Shown: positions 16,825-37,408 of the stretch, one piece after another
Position numbering within the stretch: position 1 is the stretch's first letter
Layout of the letters: each line of letters begins with the position of its first letter
NCBI GenBank assembly: GCA_001821395.1
Contig: MHLM01000001.1
Location: forward strand, 138,840-202,839
Direction of reading: 5' to 3'
Length of the DNA: 64,000 nucleotides
DNA from: Candidatus Lloydbacteria bacterium RIFCSPHIGHO2_02_FULL_50_18
GTDB taxonomy: Bacteria > Patescibacteriota > Minisyncoccia > Phycocordibacterales > UBA6899
The notes under the pieces: model-generated
What the model saw: only the letters and a program-made list of their open reading frames with translations
Database searches by the model: none
Told to the model about the DNA's origin: nothing
Translations under genes and position numbers: made by a program

Positions 16825-18924
16825 CTAAATAGCACCACTCTTACATTGCTTACATAAGTCACGTACATTCTCGGGAACATAATCACACGACGGTGCGAGT
16901 TTGAAATTCTCGCAGACATTTGCGGGCATTCCGCCACCCGACGCGCCAGCAGGAGGCATCATACCGGTCGGAATTCCTGCGGGAAGCTCTCCGCTCTTTG
17001 GAACTCCCTCGGGACGATAACCTGCTTCGGGGATGCCCTCCTTAGGAATACCCGCTGGCATTCCGGCAGGTCTAAAACTCTGCATGCACTCAGCGATAAA
17101 CGGCTGTACGTCTTCCGGTCCTCGTATTGTAGAAACATCACCGATCTTCGACTTGATACAGTCACGCATTTCCGCTGGCGCCTGCTCGAGCATCTTATCC
17201 ATTATTGCAGTCGCATTAGCCGCACATGATTGAAATGCATTCCCCATGTCGGGAGAAAGCTCGATGCCGTCTCCATTCATGATCTTTTCTACGACATCTT
17301 TTCCAAGTTTCTCTTCGATACATGCGCGCATTTCCGGCGGCATCTTCTCAAGACCTTCGCGCGCCTGTTGCATTCCGCTCTCACGCATGGACTCAAAACA
17401 CTTTCTCACGATATCTCCGCTTTGCGCATCCATTTCCCCACCCGAAAGCATCTTATCGAGCCCGCTCGACCCAAGCCCTTTTTCGATACAGGCTTTTGCC
17501 TCGGGTGTTGCGATATCCATCGCTGCACTTATCTTTTCTTTTATCTTAGGCATCATATCTGCCATGCAACCCTTGATCAACTGACCCATATTTTGTGTGG
17601 GCATGAACGTACCTTCTGATATCTTTGCCAGCGCTTCTTCTCCTAATTTTTCCTTTAGGCATACACGCGCTTCTTCAGGAAGCTGCGGCAAACCGGCACG
17701 CAATTGACCCATTCCATCTTTGATCTCTTTCAATTGCTCGGCTGGAATGAGGCCATACTTTTCGGCAAACTTAAAACATTCTTCCTGGTGCGACGTATCA
17801 TTACAATACGCCTCACAAGTTTCACGAGAACGGCACCCACCGGGACCCTCTCCGCCGGTCTTCCTCGCCATCTCGGCATCTTCCTTTGAAATGAGCCCTG
17901 CTTTCTCGGCGAAGTTCACACATTCATCGGCATGATCACTTTCGGAACAATATGCTTCACAAAGCGCTTTTGTTGTGCACTTTCCGGGAGTTTCACCCGA
18001 CTTCATAAATGGGAGTACTCTGCGCGACTCTGCGACATCTTTTGGATCAATGAACCCTGCTTTCTCGGCAAACGTGAGACATTCATCAGCATGGGTCGTA
18101 TCAGCGCAATATGATTCACATGATTTTTTGTCTGTGCAGCCACCCGGAAGCGTCGCGCCTTCTGCAAGTACTCTGGATATCCGTTTCGCGTCCTGCAATA
18201 CATCTTTCGGTATCAGGTTGTGTCGTTCTGCAAATAAGAGGCATTCATCCAAATGCGCGACTCCATTGCAGTACGCCTCGCATGTTTTTTGGTCCTTACA
18301 TGCACCGGGACCGTCTCCTCGGAGAACATCGGCAAACTCCCTCGCGCGAGCAGCCTCTTCCTTTGAGATCATGCCATTTTCTTCCGCATAATCCGTACAC
18401 GCTACGATGTGCGCCTTGTCATCACAGTACGTCTTGCAGGACGACTGGTCCTTACAATTTCCGAGCTTAGTGATGGGAAATTTATTCTTCTCAGTTTCCG
18501 ATCGCTGCAGATGCCCGACCGCACCAAACACACTATCGGTCACGACACCGTCATTGGTGAACGTATACACGCGCCCCCACAAATTCAACCTCATATCATC
18601 GGGACGCTGCGTCTGATACGAAGTGGAATATATCCCTTTTGTACCCTCGTTGAAACCACTGACGCTCCAGTTCATGTCGGCGGCAGTGTATCGAATCGTA
18701 TATATTTTTCCTGCCATGAGCGTTCCCATGGGGTCGCTCGAACCCTTCCAGCCGGAATCATCAAAATTGGCTGTATCAAAATTCACGTAAAATGTTTTTC
18801 CCGACTTGATGTACGACTGCCATGGCCCGAGTTCGGGTGCCGCAAACGCAACGATCACCGAGCTCATGAATATTCCCGCACAAACGATCAGCACTGCAAT
18901 GTGTCCTGCGAGCACATTCTTCAT
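16825..18924 (-). CDS. secreted cysteine-rich repeat protein (five tandem Cx5-6Cx3Cx7-8C...ECxxFAEKxGLI modules, then helical Cys-containing repeats)
   Basis: Signal peptide MKNVLAGHIAVLIVCAGIFMSSVIVAFAAPE, N-terminal beta-rich region, then repeats GxCKDQxxCExYCxxxxHxxECxxFAEKxGLIxxxD. Tracker ORF extends upstream to 19107; start at 18924 (alternative 18939) preferred. Confidence 0.6.
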   Translation of the reverse strand: MKNVLAGHIAVLIVCAGIFMSSVIVAFAAPELGPWQSYIKSGKTFYVNFDTANFDDSGWKGSSDPMGTLMAGKIYTIRYTAADMNWSVSGFNEGTKGIYSTSYQTQRPDDMRLNLWGRVYTFTNDGVVTDSVFGAVGHLQRSETEKNKFPITKLGNCKDQSSCKTYCDDKAHIVACTDYAEENGMISKEEAARAREFADVLRGDGPGACKDQKTCEAYCNGVAHLDECLLFAERHNLIPKDVLQDAKRISRVLAEGATLPGGCTDKKSCESYCADTTHADECLTFAEKAGFIDPKDVAESRRVLPFMKSGETPGKCTTKALCEAYCSESDHADECVNFAEKAGLISKEDAEMARKTGGEGPGGCRSRETCEAYCNDTSHQEECFKFAEKYGLIPAEQLKEIKDGMGQLRAGLPQLPEEARVCLKEKLGEEALAKISEGTFMPTQNMGQLIKGCMADMMPKIKEKISAAMDIATPEAKACIEKGLGSSGLDKMLSGGEMDAQSGDIVRKCFESMRESGMQQAREGLEKMPPEMRACIEEKLGKDVVEKIMNGDGIELSPDMGNAFQSCAANATAIMDKMLEQAPAEMRDCIKSKIGDVSTIRGPEDVQPFIAECMQSFRPAGMPAGIPKEGIPEAGYRPEGVPKSGELPAGIPTGMMPPAGASGGGMPANVCENFKLAPSCDYVPENVRDLCKQCKSGAI

Positions 18925-18943
18925 GTGAAAATTTTTCATATCG

Positions 18944-19231
18944 CTAGAAAGGATTCTGATAAGTGTCGGTATACGGATTGACCGTTTTTTCGAACGGATT
19001 CGTATCAGGCATCTTTTCGACTGGATTGGATGCACCAGTTTTTTGATAAATATCTCCACCAAAAGATTCGGCGGGTACCGCCTCTGCCGGTGTGGCATTT
19101 GTATCACTTCCTGATAATGTGTTGTCGGTCCCCTTTTGAGAAGTACCGAAATAAAACCAAAACATAAACCCTAAAATGACGGCGAACACGAGCGCGGCAA
19201 GCGCAAGTAGTACATTTTTTTTCATGATCAA
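18944..19231 (-). CDS. small secreted or membrane-anchored hypothetical protein
   Basis: MIMKKNVLLALAALVFAVILGF signal anchor. A8 tract within codons 4-6. Confidence 0.4.
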   Translation of the reverse strand: MIMKKNVLLALAALVFAVILGFMFWFYFGTSQKGTDNTLSGSDTNATPAEAVPAESFGGDIYQKTGASNPVEKMPDTNPFEKTVNPYTDTYQNPF

Positions 19232-19387
19232 ATTTTATCATATCAAAAAGTATAGTGCGAACAGCCGGACTCCACTATGTCGTACCTGATCGACAACATA
19301 TCGTTACAGAGACACATCTTTACCAGGATCTCGATCATCAATTCAAAACGATGAGCTGTGACCATAATGACCCAGCGACTCTGCTCA

Positions 19388-30619: not shown

Positions 30620-32347
30620 TCATTCATTTCCCATCAATTCGTTTATTTTAGCCGAAGTGGTTTTACCAACATATCCGGTCCCCCTAACAAGACCCCAGGG
30701 CGCTAAAACATCTTCGGTATATTTTTCTTGGAATTTTATAACTGCTTTATAAGTCAAGAGGCCGAAATAATCAGTTTCCTTACCCGGAGAGCCAACACCC
30801 GAATCAGCCAATCGAGTATCGGGGTCGGAATTGAGGAAAATTTGCAAGCGTTTTATGTCTGCATTTGTTTGTCGGTATTGTCGGTATTGAGTAAATGGGT
30901 TAGTAAATGGCAAAATATTTATTCGCAAATTTTCCGTTACAGTAGTACCCGATCTTAGAACGATTATGCTTGAAGCAGTATCTGATGATCTGCCGTAGGC
31001 AGTGTAAAATTTAACATAAACGGTATATTGTCCATCCGGACAGATTAGATTTTTAAGTGTACCGCCAAATTTTGAGCATAAGTCCCATAGCTTGAAGGCG
31101 ACATAATCTTCTCGGCTGGCATCAGTGAAATCTCCAGTCATTGAAATCGCCAATTGCTTGATGTCCATTCCCGCATTAAAACCAAGTATGACATTTCTAT
31201 TTGACGTTGTGCTTGATCCGGAATTTACAAAAACCTTAAATCCACCTGTCGGCGTTATCGGCAAATTACTCCAACCTGCTGGCATACCACCTCCCCCACT
31301 TGAAGTTACAGCAGGAGTTACTAAGACGGCGTCCCAAATCAAAGTAAAATTATGAGAGTTGGAATTTCCGACGTTATCTGAGGCAGTAAAACTGATTACA
31401 TAAGTTCCGTTAGTATCGACTGAGATAGTTGTGCTCGACGCGGTACCGTCTCCAAACGTTACCGCACCAGGTCCTGAAACTTTTGCCCACTGATAAGTTG
31501 AAGCGTTCATATCGCTCCCGGAATCTGAAGCTGCAGCGACTTGAGTAAATGTAGCTCCTTTATTTTGATCATCTCCAGCACTAATGGTGGGATTTTGTTT
31601 ATCAATTTTTATGATATTTGACGATTCTGTGTTCTCAATATTCCCTAAATTATCTACTGAGTAGTACCTTATATATTGCTGACAACTAGAACCTGAGTCA
31701 CACGACAAACTAACACTTGTTCCTTCAGTGGTTGGCACGCAGCTATTATTAGTGTCAACGCAATAATATGTATGCGCTATTCCGCTTCCGCTATTATCAG
31801 ACGGGTTCAAATTAATAGTAAGATCTGAACTATGCCAATTATCATCAGCATTATCGGTTGTAGTTGGAGACGTATTTCCCACTACAATCGATTCATTAAA
31901 TGAAACGCTCCAATCGTAAAGGGGCAGTCCGGTACTGCCTGAAGATGGCGATACGCTCGTATCTGTATCTCGAATATTACCACCTACGGCAGTAGCATCG
32001 CCGGCTTGTGCGCACCAAGATGCAACAACATAGCAACTCCAGGCGTATCTCAAATGTTGATCTGTGCCAGTCGGCGTATCACTTAGAGTAATTTTTACTT
32101 GACTGTTATTATTTATAAGTTCTACTGAATCTATTGAAACACTATTGCCACCAGCCTGTGTAAATTCAAACCCATAATCAGGACGCTCCGCAACGTTGGC
32201 AGTATCAATAGCTAATGTTCCATAAGGGATATTATAATTGGCGATTATTACGTTACTCGATCTCAAAATCGATGATGGCATGAGGGGATTCCAAGTCTGT
32301 CCCTCAAACAATACTTTATCCATAACTTTTGCAAACATCTCTCCCAT
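30620..32347 (-). CDS. C-terminal portion (575 aa) of a large surface protein: SASA/esterase-like segment, Ig-like repeats, C-terminal peptidoglycan-binding domain. Separated from its N-terminal portion by a frameshift in an A8 tract.
   Basis: PG_binding_1-like C-terminus (IKRLQIFLNSDPDTRLADSGVGSPGKETDYFGLLTYKAVIKFQEKY). ATG lies inside the homopolymer context CAAGAAAAAAAATGGGAG. Confidence 0.6.
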   Translation of the reverse strand: MGEMFAKVMDKVLFEGQTWNPLMPSSILRSSNVIIANYNIPYGTLAIDTANVAERPDYGFEFTQAGGNSVSIDSVELINNNSQVKITLSDTPTGTDQHLRYAWSCYVVASWCAQAGDATAVGGNIRDTDTSVSPSSGSTGLPLYDWSVSFNESIVVGNTSPTTTDNADDNWHSSDLTINLNPSDNSGSGIAHTYYCVDTNNSCVPTTEGTSVSLSCDSGSSCQQYIRYYSVDNLGNIENTESSNIIKIDKQNPTISAGDDQNKGATFTQVAAASDSGSDMNASTYQWAKVSGPGAVTFGDGTASSTTISVDTNGTYVISFTASDNVGNSNSHNFTLIWDAVLVTPAVTSSGGGGMPAGWSNLPITPTGGFKVFVNSGSSTTSNRNVILGFNAGMDIKQLAISMTGDFTDASREDYVAFKLWDLCSKFGGTLKNLICPDGQYTVYVKFYTAYGRSSDTASSIIVLRSGTTVTENLRINILPFTNPFTQYRQYRQTNADIKRLQIFLNSDPDTRLADSGVGSPGKETDYFGLLTYKAVIKFQEKYTEDVLAPWGLVRGTGYVGKTTSAKINELMGNE

Positions 32348-34350
32348 TTTTTTTCTTGGGTATTCACGTCCATATGGAGCTTGTCCGACCGATAATGATA
32401 TTGATACTTTGGCTGGACCAAAATAATTTTTCCGGGATTATCTATATGCGCGTTTAATTGTGCTTCAGCTATTTCCCCCGTTGGCGCGGAATTCATTTGA
32501 TTTATAAATAATGGGATAGTGTCGTTACGGCTAGTCAGAGTATTAAGATCGGTTTCATAATCCAACTGCCATTCTTCAAGATAACTTTTATAATTTGCTC
32601 CGGCACCACCCACATAATCACTTTCTCCGTGAATTGAAGTAACTGCGATGGGTCGATACAGCTCGCCTAGCGTACTCTCAACGTAAGTTTTAGTTACACT
32701 TGCCTGTGTCATACCCTTGTTATACCAAGATGTCCCCTTTTTTAAACCACTGTAGTTAGTTCCACCATGTGCATGGAGGCCAACGACAATTGGACTGAGA
32801 AGATCTTCATACGCATGAAGGCTATTGGCCATTCCTGATGAGATTGTTTCCACATTACCGCCCTCTCCTTGCCCAGACTCAATTAATGGTATGAGCGGAG
32901 CAGCTGTTCCTTCAACTCCGGGGGTAAGCATAAGATTATTATAAGGCTGCGTAACGCTTATAGGCGGTGAAGCATAATAAACTACGGCCAGACTTTGCCC
33001 CGTTGACAATATCTGATAGTAGGTTGTTTGCTCATTTACCGCGAAGGAAACAGTCCCGGAATTATTTGTAAGAGCAGGAGTTGCTGACACGCTTATTATA
33101 TGAGGAGACCCACTCGTACTTGTAGGTGTATAGGTGAATGTTTTTGCATCTGACGAACCGGACCACGACAACGAAGTTGGCGCAAACGTTCCGGCACCAG
33201 TTGATGACGATGTAATCGTGCCGGTATATTCGCCATCAGGCGTCACAATAAAATTACCGGATGCTGTAGCCATCGTGCCAGACGACGGGCCGGCAAAAGT
33301 AAATGATGTAGCGGGTGGCGCAAGGGTGACGACTGAAAATTCAGAACTGTCTGCGGTTGCAGGGACGCCATCGGTAACCCTGAGCTTGTAATAATAAATC
33401 GTAGCGGGAGATAGTCCGGTATCTGATAATGTGAGCGATGTTTGTCCGCTTAAAATATTCCCAACACCCGGCGTAAAACCGCTGCTTATGCTACGGTACC
33501 ACTGATAAATATAGGGTGCTATTCCTCCTGTTGCTTCCGAAGATGAAAGATCGATACTTGAATCTGTTTTCTCCATTAAACTAATTGAGCCGGCGCTAAA
33601 AGTAGAAAACGGATATTCAAGCCCTGTGCCCGAATTGTATAAACTCGTGATCTCATCTGGAGTTAGTATTTTTTTCCAAAAACCAACAGAATCAATGCGC
33701 CCGTCCAAATACATTGTAGCACCAGAAGCCTGAAATCTCCCGATTGTAAATGCTGCGCTAGTATTTGCCGGCTCGGAACCGGCGACGCTTGTATTGGTAT
33801 ACGTATTATTAACAGTTATGGTATTAGTATGAGTGGTAGCATTGTGGCTACATGTGAGAAAATACCATTGGCCAATCTGGACTCCCCCCGTTGGAGTCAC
33901 ATATGCATCTACCGATGGAAAAGTAGAACAGCGAAACGTGTCGGAACTAACACCGTAATACAAAGCATATTCTCCGGTGCTGCCATATTTTCCAACAAAC
34001 GTCATATTTGTTGATTTGGTATCAAGATAGACCCATGCAGAAATAGTAAAATCTATACCGCCTATACTCAAACTGGGATTATCAACGATGCTTAAATATT
34101 CTGAGTTAGCCATAGTTAACTGCGCAGAATTTCCAAGTTTGCCAACTCCTTGAGTCACCGTATTGTTGTCGGTCAGATTATTTGAACTAACACTATCTGC
34201 TCGCGTACCACTTACCTCATCTAATTTCCAATAAGAAATAAGTGATGTGGATAAATCCGTTGCAAAAACATGAGAGAAAAATTGTGTGTACAACGACACC
34301 GAAATTAAAAGCAGGGCAAATATTTTAAAATTTTTTCGAAAGGTTTTCAT
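32263..34350 (-). CDS. N-terminal portion (695 aa) of the same surface protein: signal peptide, LamG/ConA-like lectin domain, Ser/Thr-rich Ig/FN3-like repeats, start of an esterase-like domain
   Basis: Signal peptide MKTFRKNFKIFALLLISVSLYTQFFSHVFA. LamG-like block (LISYWKLDEVSGTRADSVS...TISAWVYLD...MYLDGRIDSVGFW). Last about 28 codons are out-of-frame read-through after the A8 tract. Confidence 0.6.
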   Translation of the reverse strand: MKTFRKNFKIFALLLISVSLYTQFFSHVFATDLSTSLISYWKLDEVSGTRADSVSSNNLTDNNTVTQGVGKLGNSAQLTMANSEYLSIVDNPSLSIGGIDFTISAWVYLDTKSTNMTFVGKYGSTGEYALYYGVSSDTFRCSTFPSVDAYVTPTGGVQIGQWYFLTCSHNATTHTNTITVNNTYTNTSVAGSEPANTSAAFTIGRFQASGATMYLDGRIDSVGFWKKILTPDEITSLYNSGTGLEYPFSTFSAGSISLMEKTDSSIDLSSSEATGGIAPYIYQWYRSISSGFTPGVGNILSGQTSLTLSDTGLSPATIYYYKLRVTDGVPATADSSEFSVVTLAPPATSFTFAGPSSGTMATASGNFIVTPDGEYTGTITSSSTGAGTFAPTSLSWSGSSDAKTFTYTPTSTSGSPHIISVSATPALTNNSGTVSFAVNEQTTYYQILSTGQSLAVVYYASPPISVTQPYNNLMLTPGVEGTAAPLIPLIESGQGEGGNVETISSGMANSLHAYEDLLSPIVVGLHAHGGTNYSGLKKGTSWYNKGMTQASVTKTYVESTLGELYRPIAVTSIHGESDYVGGAGANYKSYLEEWQLDYETDLNTLTSRNDTIPLFINQMNSAPTGEIAEAQLNAHIDNPGKIILVQPKYQYHYRSDKLHMDVNTQEKKWERCLQKLWIKYCLRDRLGIPSCHHRF

Positions 34351-35785: not shown

Positions 35786-37408
35786 ATGAGTTTATGGAAA
35801 AAAGCAGGCTACGGCCTTTTGGGAATTTCGGCCATTCTCGGTCGAAGGACCCTCTCGTCCGCATACGACCGCCAGATCGAGGGCATTACCGACGCGCATA
35901 TCAAATATGTCGGCGGCGCAATGCTCTTCGGAGTTTGCGGTCTCGTGCTTAACTTCATCTTTTTGATGAATGGGATGCACGGCATGCAAACAGCGCTCTT
36001 CGGAGTTATCTGTCTTGCGTCACTGTATTACATGATCGCGCCAAAAATGAGCATTCCGCTCATCATCGCGGCCGCAGCGGTTCATGCCGGAGAGGCGAAA
36101 GATCAAGCGAAGCTCAAACTGCTCGGCGACGGAGTGAAAGACATTGTCAATCTGGCAAGTCTGGCACTCTTTTGGATCGGTGTGTACATCGTCGGAACGA
36201 TCATTGCCCCATGGGACTTGAGTTGGGAATTCTTTCTTTTCCTTCACATGTTCATCATCATGGCACTACTGCTCTTTGTGAGCGGCAAGGCATCGGTCAG
36301 CACGAAAGTGTACGATAATTGCTTCAAGTTCACCATTGCTGTGATCGTTGTCAGCGTACTCACGATCGCAATCGGACGTGAGCACGTAGGACCATTATGG
36401 GCGCAATTCTCCGCAAGCAAAACTTCTCGTATCGAGGCCAAGTTGAACGCAAGTTCGATTAAGACCGCAGACGAAGCGTCAGCCGAGTGGATTGAGAAGA
36501 ATGTTCACATCGATAAGCGGACCGGTGAGCAATTCGTCATCGTTACCGACAAGGTCACCGGCAAACAAAAACCGGTCGCCGCACAGCCCTACATTGAGAG
36601 GGAGAAGCAACGCAGGAACGAAACCATCCGCTCGGTCACGGAAAAAGGCGGAAAGACCAATGCGACAAACACGAGACAGGATAATAAGGGAGGTTACTTC
36701 TCTTATGAATACTGGAACGCAAAAGCGCATGAATGGTCGGAATCCTGGGGGGTACCACTCTTCGTCGGCATCATTGCAGTATTGGCAATGGTCGTGGCAC
36801 ACTTCATTCCCGTCATCTGGGGAGGAAAGAAACTCTTTGGAAAGTCAGGTACTGAAACGGCAAAGGTTGTTAGTACGCCGAAGGAGTCCGGAAACGGACT
36901 TGTTGCCACATTACTCGTTGCGGGTGCTCTCGTGTATATTGGCTTTCAGTATACGCAAGGTGAACGAGGAGCAAAAGCCAATATGGCACCGCAAACAAGC
37001 GTTGCGACATATGCCACACTAAAGAAAGGAGATGCCGGTCTGTGGATGGCCTACTGGAGTGACATGAACGGGCACTCCATTTACAGACTTCCTCAAGATA
37101 GATGGCATGGGCGAACTGTTTCGCTTTTGCCAGGCAGCTCTGTTTCGAATGTGTCCGACATCACGCTTGTTTTTGATCCTAATGATCCAAGTACCAATAT
37201 CTCATTTAACGGAGATTGCGTTGCCGGTAGCTACGATATTCAAAAAGAGTGCGTCGGATACTGGAGAACAGAAGTGGGGTCCGGTACTTTCAGGCTTGAA
37301 TGGTGGGGAAGCCAGGAAACATTCCACATTGCACTGTTTCCGGGACAACTGCCGGCAAAAGGACAGGCACAAGCCATCAAGGAGATACGCTTCGTAAAAA
37401 AACAATGA
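35786..37408 (+). CDS. polytopic membrane protein (about 8 TM, charged central loop and about 150-aa C-terminal extracytoplasmic beta-rich domain). Architecture resembles Gram-positive VirB6-like (TcpH/PrgH-type) proteins.
   Basis: 540 aa. TM clusters at the N-terminus and around residues 310-380. C-terminal domain rich in W/Y/G. Similarity is architectural only. Confidence 0.4.
   Translation: MSLWKKAGYGLLGISAILGRRTLSSAYDRQIEGITDAHIKYVGGAMLFGVCGLVLNFIFLMNGMHGMQTALFGVICLASLYYMIAPKMSIPLIIAAAAVHAGEAKDQAKLKLLGDGVKDIVNLASLALFWIGVYIVGTIIAPWDLSWEFFLFLHMFIIMALLLFVSGKASVSTKVYDNCFKFTIAVIVVSVLTIAIGREHVGPLWAQFSASKTSRIEAKLNASSIKTADEASAEWIEKNVHIDKRTGEQFVIVTDKVTGKQKPVAAQPYIEREKQRRNETIRSVTEKGGKTNATNTRQDNKGGYFSYEYWNAKAHEWSESWGVPLFVGIIAVLAMVVAHFIPVIWGGKKLFGKSGTETAKVVSTPKESGNGLVATLLVAGALVYIGFQYTQGERGAKANMAPQTSVATYATLKKGDAGLWMAYWSDMNGHSIYRLPQDRWHGRTVSLLPGSSVSNVSDITLVFDPNDPSTNISFNGDCVAGSYDIQKECVGYWRTEVGSGTFRLEWWGSQETFHIALFPGQLPAKGQAQAIKEIRFVKKQ

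Follow-up and report, generated by a model that had tools for sequence, protein, structure and literature searches.

A gene pair of Patescibacteria encoding an exported cysteine-repeat protein, a candidate helical envelope scaffold, and a small membrane protein with an NPF-motif tail

The Ebh and FIVAR-GA repeats of Staphylococcus aureus and the three-helix modules of the protein A type form rod-like Gram-positive surface proteins, which are without cysteines and carry LPXTG or transmembrane anchors. Small helical units closed by two disulfides are found in the CHCH proteins, twin-CX3C or twin-CX9C hairpins such as Tim9/Tim10, Cox17 and NDUFB7, while the pilins of Actinomyces and Corynebacterium are exported unfolded through the Sec pathway and then locked by disulfides with the aid of MdbA and VKOR. 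Here we describe two adjacent genes that recall each of these systems in part. They lie in a stretch of 64,000 nucleotides (nt) of contig MHLM01000001.1 of Candidatus Lloydbacteria bacterium RIFCSPHIGHO2_02_FULL_50_18 (hereafter the window, in whose numbering all positions are given; features are on the reverse strand unless marked otherwise). The large gene (16825..18924, stop codon 16825-16827) encodes an exported cysteine-repeat protein of 699 amino acids (aa) and its partner gene (18944..19225) a single-pass membrane protein of 93 aa. The reading we favour, to which we would give about an even chance, is that the large protein is exported and serves as a helical scaffold stapled by disulfides, forming the large subunit of a Patescibacteria-specific two-gene envelope cassette, carrying accessory domains and acting with a partner that bears an NPF-motif tail. 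As far as the named matches show, the cassette is restricted to Patescibacteria (Parcubacteria/Paceibacteria lineages).

The core of the large protein is an array of five four-cysteine modules. The pattern Cx5Cx3Cx8C matches the protein exactly five times, with the first cysteine at aa 157, 209, 263, 316 and 364, and as C.{5}C.{3}C.{8}C it has no further match when the whole 64-kb window is translated in all six frames. Using this pattern together with alignment and modelling, it was possible to delimit module 1 (aa 153-204, 18313..18468; C157, C163, C167, C176), module 2 (aa 205-258, 18151..18312; C209, C215, C219, C228), module 3 (aa 259-311, 17992..18150; C263, C269, C273, C282), module 4 (aa 312-359, 17848..17991; C316, C322, C326, C335) and module 5 (aa 360-414, 17683..17847; C364, C370, C374, C383). 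The modules are of about 52 aa each, and stretches of 50 aa from all five can be aligned without gaps at pairwise identities of 30-46%. All 20 module cysteines are invariant in an alignment of 59 orthologous sequences, and the complete set is present in 1,832 of the 1,861 module instances examined across the family. The only positions conserved at 90% or more are the four cysteines, the Gly before C1 and the Phe after C4. Among the 1,832 complete modules a Tyr position is occupied by Tyr in 80% and by Phe in 17%, the Glu preceding C4 is found in 65%, and the position that is His in all five Lloydbacteria modules is His in 51% and Asn in 44%. This pattern looks like that of a structural mini-core rather than of a His/Glu metal site.

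A scan of the large gene for tandem repeats at the DNA level found none, which indicates that the repeats are old. Of 74 five-module proteins, 69 share the same spacing between modules (52, 54, 53 and 48), and orthologous modules are more alike (50-60% identity) than paralogous ones (27-50%), so that the array must be ancient, its positions being individually distinct and each with a role of its own. Judged from these comparisons, the array is an old fixed assembly, neither an expanding repeat nor a set of interchangeable peptides.

The N-terminus of the large protein is typical of a Sec signal, with MK followed by a hydrophobic stretch of 21 residues and AFA before AP. From the sequence, the signal peptide was placed at aa 1-29 (MKNVLAGHIAVLIVCAGIFMSSVIVAFA, followed by Ala; 18838..18924), and the AlphaFold2 (AF2) model has a helix at aa 2-26, inside it. 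The signal peptide is without a twin-arginine motif and without a conserved lipobox, as Cys15 lies outside a canonical lipobox and is not kept in homologs. At the C-terminus (…CKQCKSGAI) there is no LPXTG motif and no transmembrane segment, so that the protein has the marks of neither a sortase-anchored protein nor a lipoprotein. The signal peptide is followed by an N-terminal accessory domain (aa 30-148, 18481..18837), a predicted small beta-barrel similar to lipocalins and avidins, which is optional in the family and missing from most of its members. Its strands lie at aa 45-141 of the full-length AF2 model, giving a domain of about 100 aa that has no Pfam match and a low identity (5-16%) to eight-stranded barrels of the lipocalin, avidin and ToxS-like kinds.

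Beyond the module array, aa 415-620 (17065..17682) comprise four helical repeats, about 56 aa long and with two cysteines apiece (pairs 422/453, 479/509, 535/567 and 589/613). These are confidently helical in the AF2 model, and the consensus of the family in the hidden Markov model is PPEvkaCLkekLGedileKIesGe..gpeigdaIkeCFesm. A Pro/Gly-rich spacer of about 45 aa (aa 621-666, 16927..17064) comes next and is predicted to be disordered, with a predicted local distance difference test score (pLDDT) below 50 for aa 622-665. The protein ends in a four-cysteine mini-domain (aa 667-699, CENFKLAPSCDYVPENVRDLCKQCK, 16828..16926; C671, C680, C691 and C694), modelled as two short helices with a pLDDT of about 87-91. 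Its motif is conserved in the 59-sequence alignment, with the family consensus CxxFxxxPSCxYVPxxxxxxCxKCK, and a motif of this type closes 62 of the 266 family proteins collected. The mature protein thus has 32 cysteines (5x4 + 4x2 + 4). An earlier note on this DNA, written from the letters and open reading frames (ORFs), had described a secreted protein with a signal peptide, five tandem four-cysteine modules of about 50 aa and a Cys-rich C-terminus, and in all of this the present analysis agrees with it. Its beta-rich domain of roughly 230 aa, on the other hand, shrinks to the barrel of about 100 aa, the larger figure fitting only if the count starts from the upstream GTG of a maximal ORF of 760 aa, and the three looser helical repeats that it listed are in fact four, each with one cysteine pair.

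The module array (aa 145-420) was modelled with AF2 from the 59-sequence alignment. This structure prediction, of a kind that the earlier note had proposed for a single repeat, gave a confident all-helical result (pLDDT 91.8, predicted TM-score (pTM) 0.74) with three helices per module. In the model C1 is on coil just before helix 1, which carries C2 and C3 at a distance of one turn from each other, and C4 sits in helix 2 some two turns from its start. At full length the model (pLDDT 83.9) contains the barrel at aa 45-141, the four helical repeats, the disordered spacer at aa 622-665 and the folded C-terminal mini-domain. With the Ebh and protein A-like rods the large protein shares a signal peptide, tandem three-helix units of about 50 aa serving as a putative stalk, a Pro-rich C-terminal segment and variable accessory domains. 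It differs from them in its predicted cysteine staples, in having no LPXTG or transmembrane anchor and in being paired with a separate small membrane protein, and there is no sequence or profile match between them and the large protein. With the CHCH hairpins the modules share short antiparallel helices, two (here predicted) disulfides and a CX3C pair one turn apart. In CHCH proteins, however, CXnC (n = 3 or 9) occurs on both helices, whereas in the modules CX3C is on helix 1 only, C4 stands alone on helix 2 and C1 is on coil. The modules also have a third helix and are bacterial, extracytoplasmic and arranged in tandem arrays of 4-13, and no significant sequence or fold match connects them with CHCH proteins, although NDUFB7 was the sole recurring sub-threshold sequence match in the PDB, on module 1 (E 0.14-0.6).

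Four cysteines that are almost never lost could be read in two ways, as they are expected of a Cys4 metal domain and equally of a unit with two structural disulfides. To the numbers of cysteines in exported proteins we can add a comparison in which the window and related Patescibacteria loci were pooled, the cysteine-module family was left out and a heuristic signal-peptide filter was applied. An even count of cysteines was found in 41 of 48 exported cysteine-containing proteins (85%) vs 76 of 176 predicted cytoplasmic ones (43%; Fisher p ~1e-7), figures that depend on heuristic predictions and may include homologs among the pooled loci. Such a bias is the classic signature of a disulfide-forming exported proteome. 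An MdbA-like thiol-disulfide oxidoreductase is enriched in the Candidate Phyla Radiation (CPR), often beside VKOR (Méheust et al., bioRxiv 10.1101/335083). The large protein has what is expected of an oxidatively folded exported protein, namely an export signal and even cysteine sets. Taken together, Sec export, cysteines in sets of four or two, the even-cysteine bias and the report of MdbA/VKOR in CPR favour two disulfides per module as the best interpretation of the sequences. As with the exported pilins of Actinomyces and Corynebacterium, the large protein is predicted to leave the cell unfolded and to be locked by disulfides afterwards, although it has no homology to them. From the cysteine spacing and the positions of the helices in the model, the predicted pairing is C1-C3 and C2-C4, the latter because both cysteines are equidistant from the turn between helix 1 and helix 2. 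Loss of cysteines is too rare to reveal the pairing, since only 29 of the 1,861 module instances are incomplete and most of these are truncated alignments.

It is quite unlikely that the four cysteines of each module instead bind Zn, Cu or Fe-S, possibly with the help of His or Glu, and that the protein is an extracytoplasmic metal store, metallochaperone or electron carrier. In favour of this, besides the persistence of the cysteines and the His present in all five Lloydbacteria modules, the model places C2 and C3 on the same face of helix 1 with C1 and C4 near, a geometry in which a Cys4 site would be possible. Twin-CX3C proteins can also bind Zn in their reduced state. The His and Glu positions vary across the family, however, and the signal is of the Sec type without a twin-arginine motif, which makes export of a pre-assembled cofactor impossible. 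The remaining cysteines of the large protein are all paired, the even-cysteine bias of the exported proteome and the MdbA/VKOR-like oxidases of CPR point to oxidation, and there was no match to a zinc-finger or Fe-S family in Pfam or NCBIfam. The suggestion of the earlier note that conserved His, Glu and Cys positions could bind metal therefore survives only in its cysteines; His and Glu are not conserved, and metal binding is not supported by the type of signal or by the even-cysteine bias.

The 32 cysteines of the mature protein, with a CxxxC on a helix in every module, and the presence in the window of genes for peroxiredoxin, superoxide dismutase and a thioredoxin-reductase-like protein would also suit a redox-active extracytoplasmic component, in which CxxxC pairs serve as a thiol-disulfide relay or an oxidative buffer. 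This we consider very unlikely, as the protein has neither a thioredoxin fold nor a CxxC motif, its cysteines stand alongside conserved Tyr/Phe core residues in the manner of structural staples, and the redox genes are not conserved neighbours of the family.

The search for known families gave no assignment. The large protein matched no Pfam family at E<=10, zinc fingers included, and only noise in NCBIfam (BilQ, E 0.068), while the best E-values against the PDB were 0.21 for phmmer with the protein, 0.52 with the module profile and 0.11 with the full-length profile. The earlier note had been unable to place the repeat in a known family, naming a clear assignment as the result that would speak against it, and the Pfam, NCBIfam and PDB searches leave the repeat equally unplaced. 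In the literature searched on cysteine-rich, disulfide or surface proteins of Patescibacteria/Parcubacteria, no description of the module family was found. The module and the gene pair are thus undescribed in the libraries and literature searched; secreted surface proteins made of disulfide-rich helical repeats are, as a kind, familiar.

Some homologs did score marginally against the plant peptide families AtDEF-like (PF25052) and Nodulin_late (PF07127), with 25.6-29 bits against a cutoff of 25. We rejected these as chance matches of the cysteine pattern. They resemble the modules in cysteine spacing in a few homologs but cover only about 30 residues (for AtDEF-like 20-29 bits over ~30 of 79 model positions), and the module fold is predicted to be all-helical. 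Such scores, with the Gly/Pro-rich junctions between modules, could suggest a polyprotein that is cut at GPGG linkers into defensin-like peptides, for instance antimicrobial or signalling peptides directed at hosts or competitors. That is extremely improbable. The large protein itself has no AtDEF-like or Nodulin_late match at E<=10, the predicted all-helical continuous array (pTM 0.74) differs from the cysteine-stabilised alpha-beta fold of defensins, module positions are individually conserved at a fixed spacing, and no processing protease is a conserved partner nearby. Also rejected, both being without domain support, were the NCBI name 'YppG family' of one homolog and the automatic JGI name 'FliL' on some of the small partner proteins.

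The family is large. The product of the large gene is identical (100%) to P0001, 'hypothetical protein A2845_02830, Candidatus Lloydbacteria bacterium RIFCSPHIGHO2_01_FULL', from a Lloydbacteria metagenome-assembled genome. At least 421 full-length relatives were found at E<=1e-3, and those that carry a source name all come from Patescibacteria. Scanning of species-representative genomes yielded 381 confirmed stretches, and all 80 of the loci retrieved from these are of Patescibacteria, including Lloyd-, Nomura-, Sung-, Azam-, Lipton-, Jorgensen-, Terry-, Kaiser-, Wolfe-, Niyogi-, Yanofsky- and Wildermuthbacteria as well as Paceibacterota. A search for homologs of the repeat, also proposed by the earlier note, was carried out exhaustively with HMMER and a module profile of 48 positions; at E<=1e-3 the module is present in 1,877 clusters (formed at 50% identity), and in 1,090 of them at E<=1e-30. 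These results define a widespread and deeply conserved extracytoplasmic module without a Pfam, NCBIfam or PDB counterpart, with a fixed domain architecture and a strictly conserved partner gene. Patescibacteria make up a large share of bacterial diversity and mostly seem to live attached to other cells, and almost none of their surface-building proteins has an annotation. The gene pair is a concrete two-protein target for structural, localisation and genetic studies in the few tractable Patescibacteria, and the module is ready for definition as a database domain.

The partner protein consists of MKK, a transmembrane helix and an acidic tail that ends in SFGGDIY…NPVEKMPDTNPFEKTVNPYTDTYQNPF. Encoding-contig look-ups placed such a gene directly upstream of the large gene in 7 of 7 loci, and a strict regular expression identified it in 77 of 86, the inspected exceptions having a variant tail (…INPLDRANPFKYxNPLR) or cut contigs. 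In the window its stop codon is 4-19 nt upstream of the start of the large gene. In the loci inspected the partner proteins are of about 75-105 aa with one transmembrane helix and a C-terminal tail with NPF/NPY motifs, of which there are three or four (NP[FY]). The gene is present even in a distant subfamily with ten modules. The partner family gave 232 matches, which have no Pfam match and carry only Patescibacteria names; the 120 matches listed range from 72 to 152 aa. Beyond the partner gene the neighbourhood is not conserved among the loci compared, and so gives no functional hint.

On the reading of an envelope scaffold, the large protein would be exported by Sec and would then fold oxidatively outside the cytoplasm. 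The product would be a long, mostly rigid, all-helical repeat structure, with five three-helix modules each locked by two disulfides, four helical repeats with a single disulfide apiece, a flexible spacer rich in Pro and Gly and, at the C-terminal end, a small four-Cys knot. The helical array would serve on the cell surface as an extracellular scaffold or stalk, perhaps adhesive, for variable heads: the lipocalin-like barrel here and ConA-like lectin or Ig-like domains in paralogs. The partner would tether or organise the scaffold at the membrane through its NPF/NPY tail. Recognition of NPF motifs by the EH domains of eukaryotic endocytic proteins offers an analogy, in that NPF motifs are repeated in a flexible tail for which a small helical reader domain is proposed. 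There is, however, no homology to the EH system and no EF-hand, and the partner tail may lie on either side of the membrane.

Several observations weigh against this reading. With no LPXTG motif, lipobox or transmembrane anchor in the large protein, its retention at the surface is hypothetical. By the positive-inside rule the topology of the partner is ambiguous, as the mean number of Lys and Arg is 1.8 before and 1.9 after the helix in 77 proteins, and a cytoplasmic tail would rule out the tethering model. Counts of NPx motifs follow the number of modules or repeats only as a loose trend, confounded by lineage. Fold comparison of the module models gave no significant match, but as small three-helix bundles are structurally generic this is weak evidence of novelty.

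A wider proposal, which must be regarded as doubtful, is that the large protein and its partner form a new envelope or attachment apparatus of Patescibacteria, in which NPF/NPY motifs would be docked in the helical repeats, the new-fold stalk would be tethered and interchangeable heads would contact hosts or capture host molecules. Should the pair turn out to be an envelope or attachment structure, it would be directly relevant to the interaction of these reduced bacteria with their hosts.

It is still conceivable, if unlikely, that the modules bind or organise the cell wall in a role like that of the three-helix PG_binding_1 repeats, the protein then being a peptidoglycan-associated structural or morphogenetic factor. 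Consistent with this, the module is modelled as a three-helix unit of about 50 aa, the gene in the window is near those for alanine racemase and a DUF5715-like exported protein, the neighbours at locus L008 include FtsW/RodA and SecDF, and the protein is widespread in the sampled Patescibacteria genomes with a core that does not look variable. Against it, there is no match to PG_binding_1 or any other wall-binding family even at E<=10, and the neighbourhood is unconserved except for the small NPF-tail gene.

The scaffold reading, to which we return, draws further on the variation in architecture within the family. In the commonest layout a large protein with five modules and four helical repeats goes with a partner that has three NPx motifs, and other members have 6-13 modules with few or no helical repeats. 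The N-terminal head may be present, absent or of another type, such as an Ig-like "IKDPDGIQEFSL" domain. Some paralogs have a C-terminal ConA-like Laminin_G_3 domain, and many have long P/G/Q-rich tails with a short hydrophobic or amphipathic helix at the end, which by analogy resemble wall-spanning regions plus an anchor. A conserved stalk with variable heads and Pro-rich tails is what would be expected of monoderm cell-surface proteins.

A two-Cys beta domain of about 100 aa (…IKDPDGIQEFSLSP…YGG.LSGC…VIDC.NN.TELEI) was seen in two settings. In one lineage it is the N-terminal head of the large genes (loci L046, L057, L061, L065, L069, L076, L080 and L083), and it recurs inside the C-terminal tails of P0229 and P0237, a distribution that points to domain shuffling. 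Wherever a lineage has this head, its partner tail is the variant …INPLDRANPFKYxNPLR described above. At locus L007 (6839-10231, forward strand) a 1,130-aa protein with fn3 and Laminin_G_3 domains is encoded directly after a family member, a hint that family genes sit among surface-protein genes.

The start of the large gene deserves comment. An in-frame ATG at 18939, 4 nt past the stop of the small gene, is a second possible start that would add five codons. The maximal ORF, of 760 aa from a GTG start (16825-19107), adds 61 codons before the likely start and runs over the partner gene in a different frame. One relative, P0002 (81% identity), is annotated from such an extended start (MPHRQRRYPPNLL…), so that gene callers can swallow part of the region of the small gene. 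Just upstream of the partner gene is a sigma-70-like promoter candidate (19232..19261; TTCGCA, an 18-nt spacer and TG-TAAAAT) that could drive a two-gene transcript; it is identified by its consensus only, and the region contains no more such sites than would be expected from shuffled sequence. The 16-nt unit TTTTATCATGATCAAA occurs twice at 19217-19247, spanning the start codon of the partner gene and the promoter-like region, and could be an operator or a mere AT-rich leader.

The rest of the window is an ordinary Patescibacteria chromosome, with genes for ClpB (recognised from its translation), alanine racemase, MiaA, ParB, topoisomerase I, GyrA, IF-2, HisRS, superoxide dismutase and peroxiredoxin. 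The DUF5715-like protein mentioned above (13542-14474) has 310 aa, an N-terminal hydrophobic signal-like segment and a weak similarity to DUF5715 that falls short of the cutoff (E 9e-4); adjoining alanine racemase (15085-16326), it could be a cell-wall enzyme. A 540-aa ORF on the forward strand (35786-37408) has no Pfam family at E<=1e-3. Outside the window, at locus L004 (ENA ERZ27249449 k141_82438; 9306-11798, reverse strand), an 830-aa protein with major-vault-protein domains (Vault_3, MVP_shoulder), unusual for a bacterium, is encoded two genes from a family member on a Patescibacteria-like contig of 341 kb. Within the window, two large adjoining genes at 30620-34350 encode proteins of 575 aa with PKD domains and of 695 aa with a Laminin_G_3 (ConA-like) domain. 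This pair occupies the stretch of lowest GC content (0.43-0.44 vs ~0.48 elsewhere) and may represent a variable or acquired surface-protein locus.

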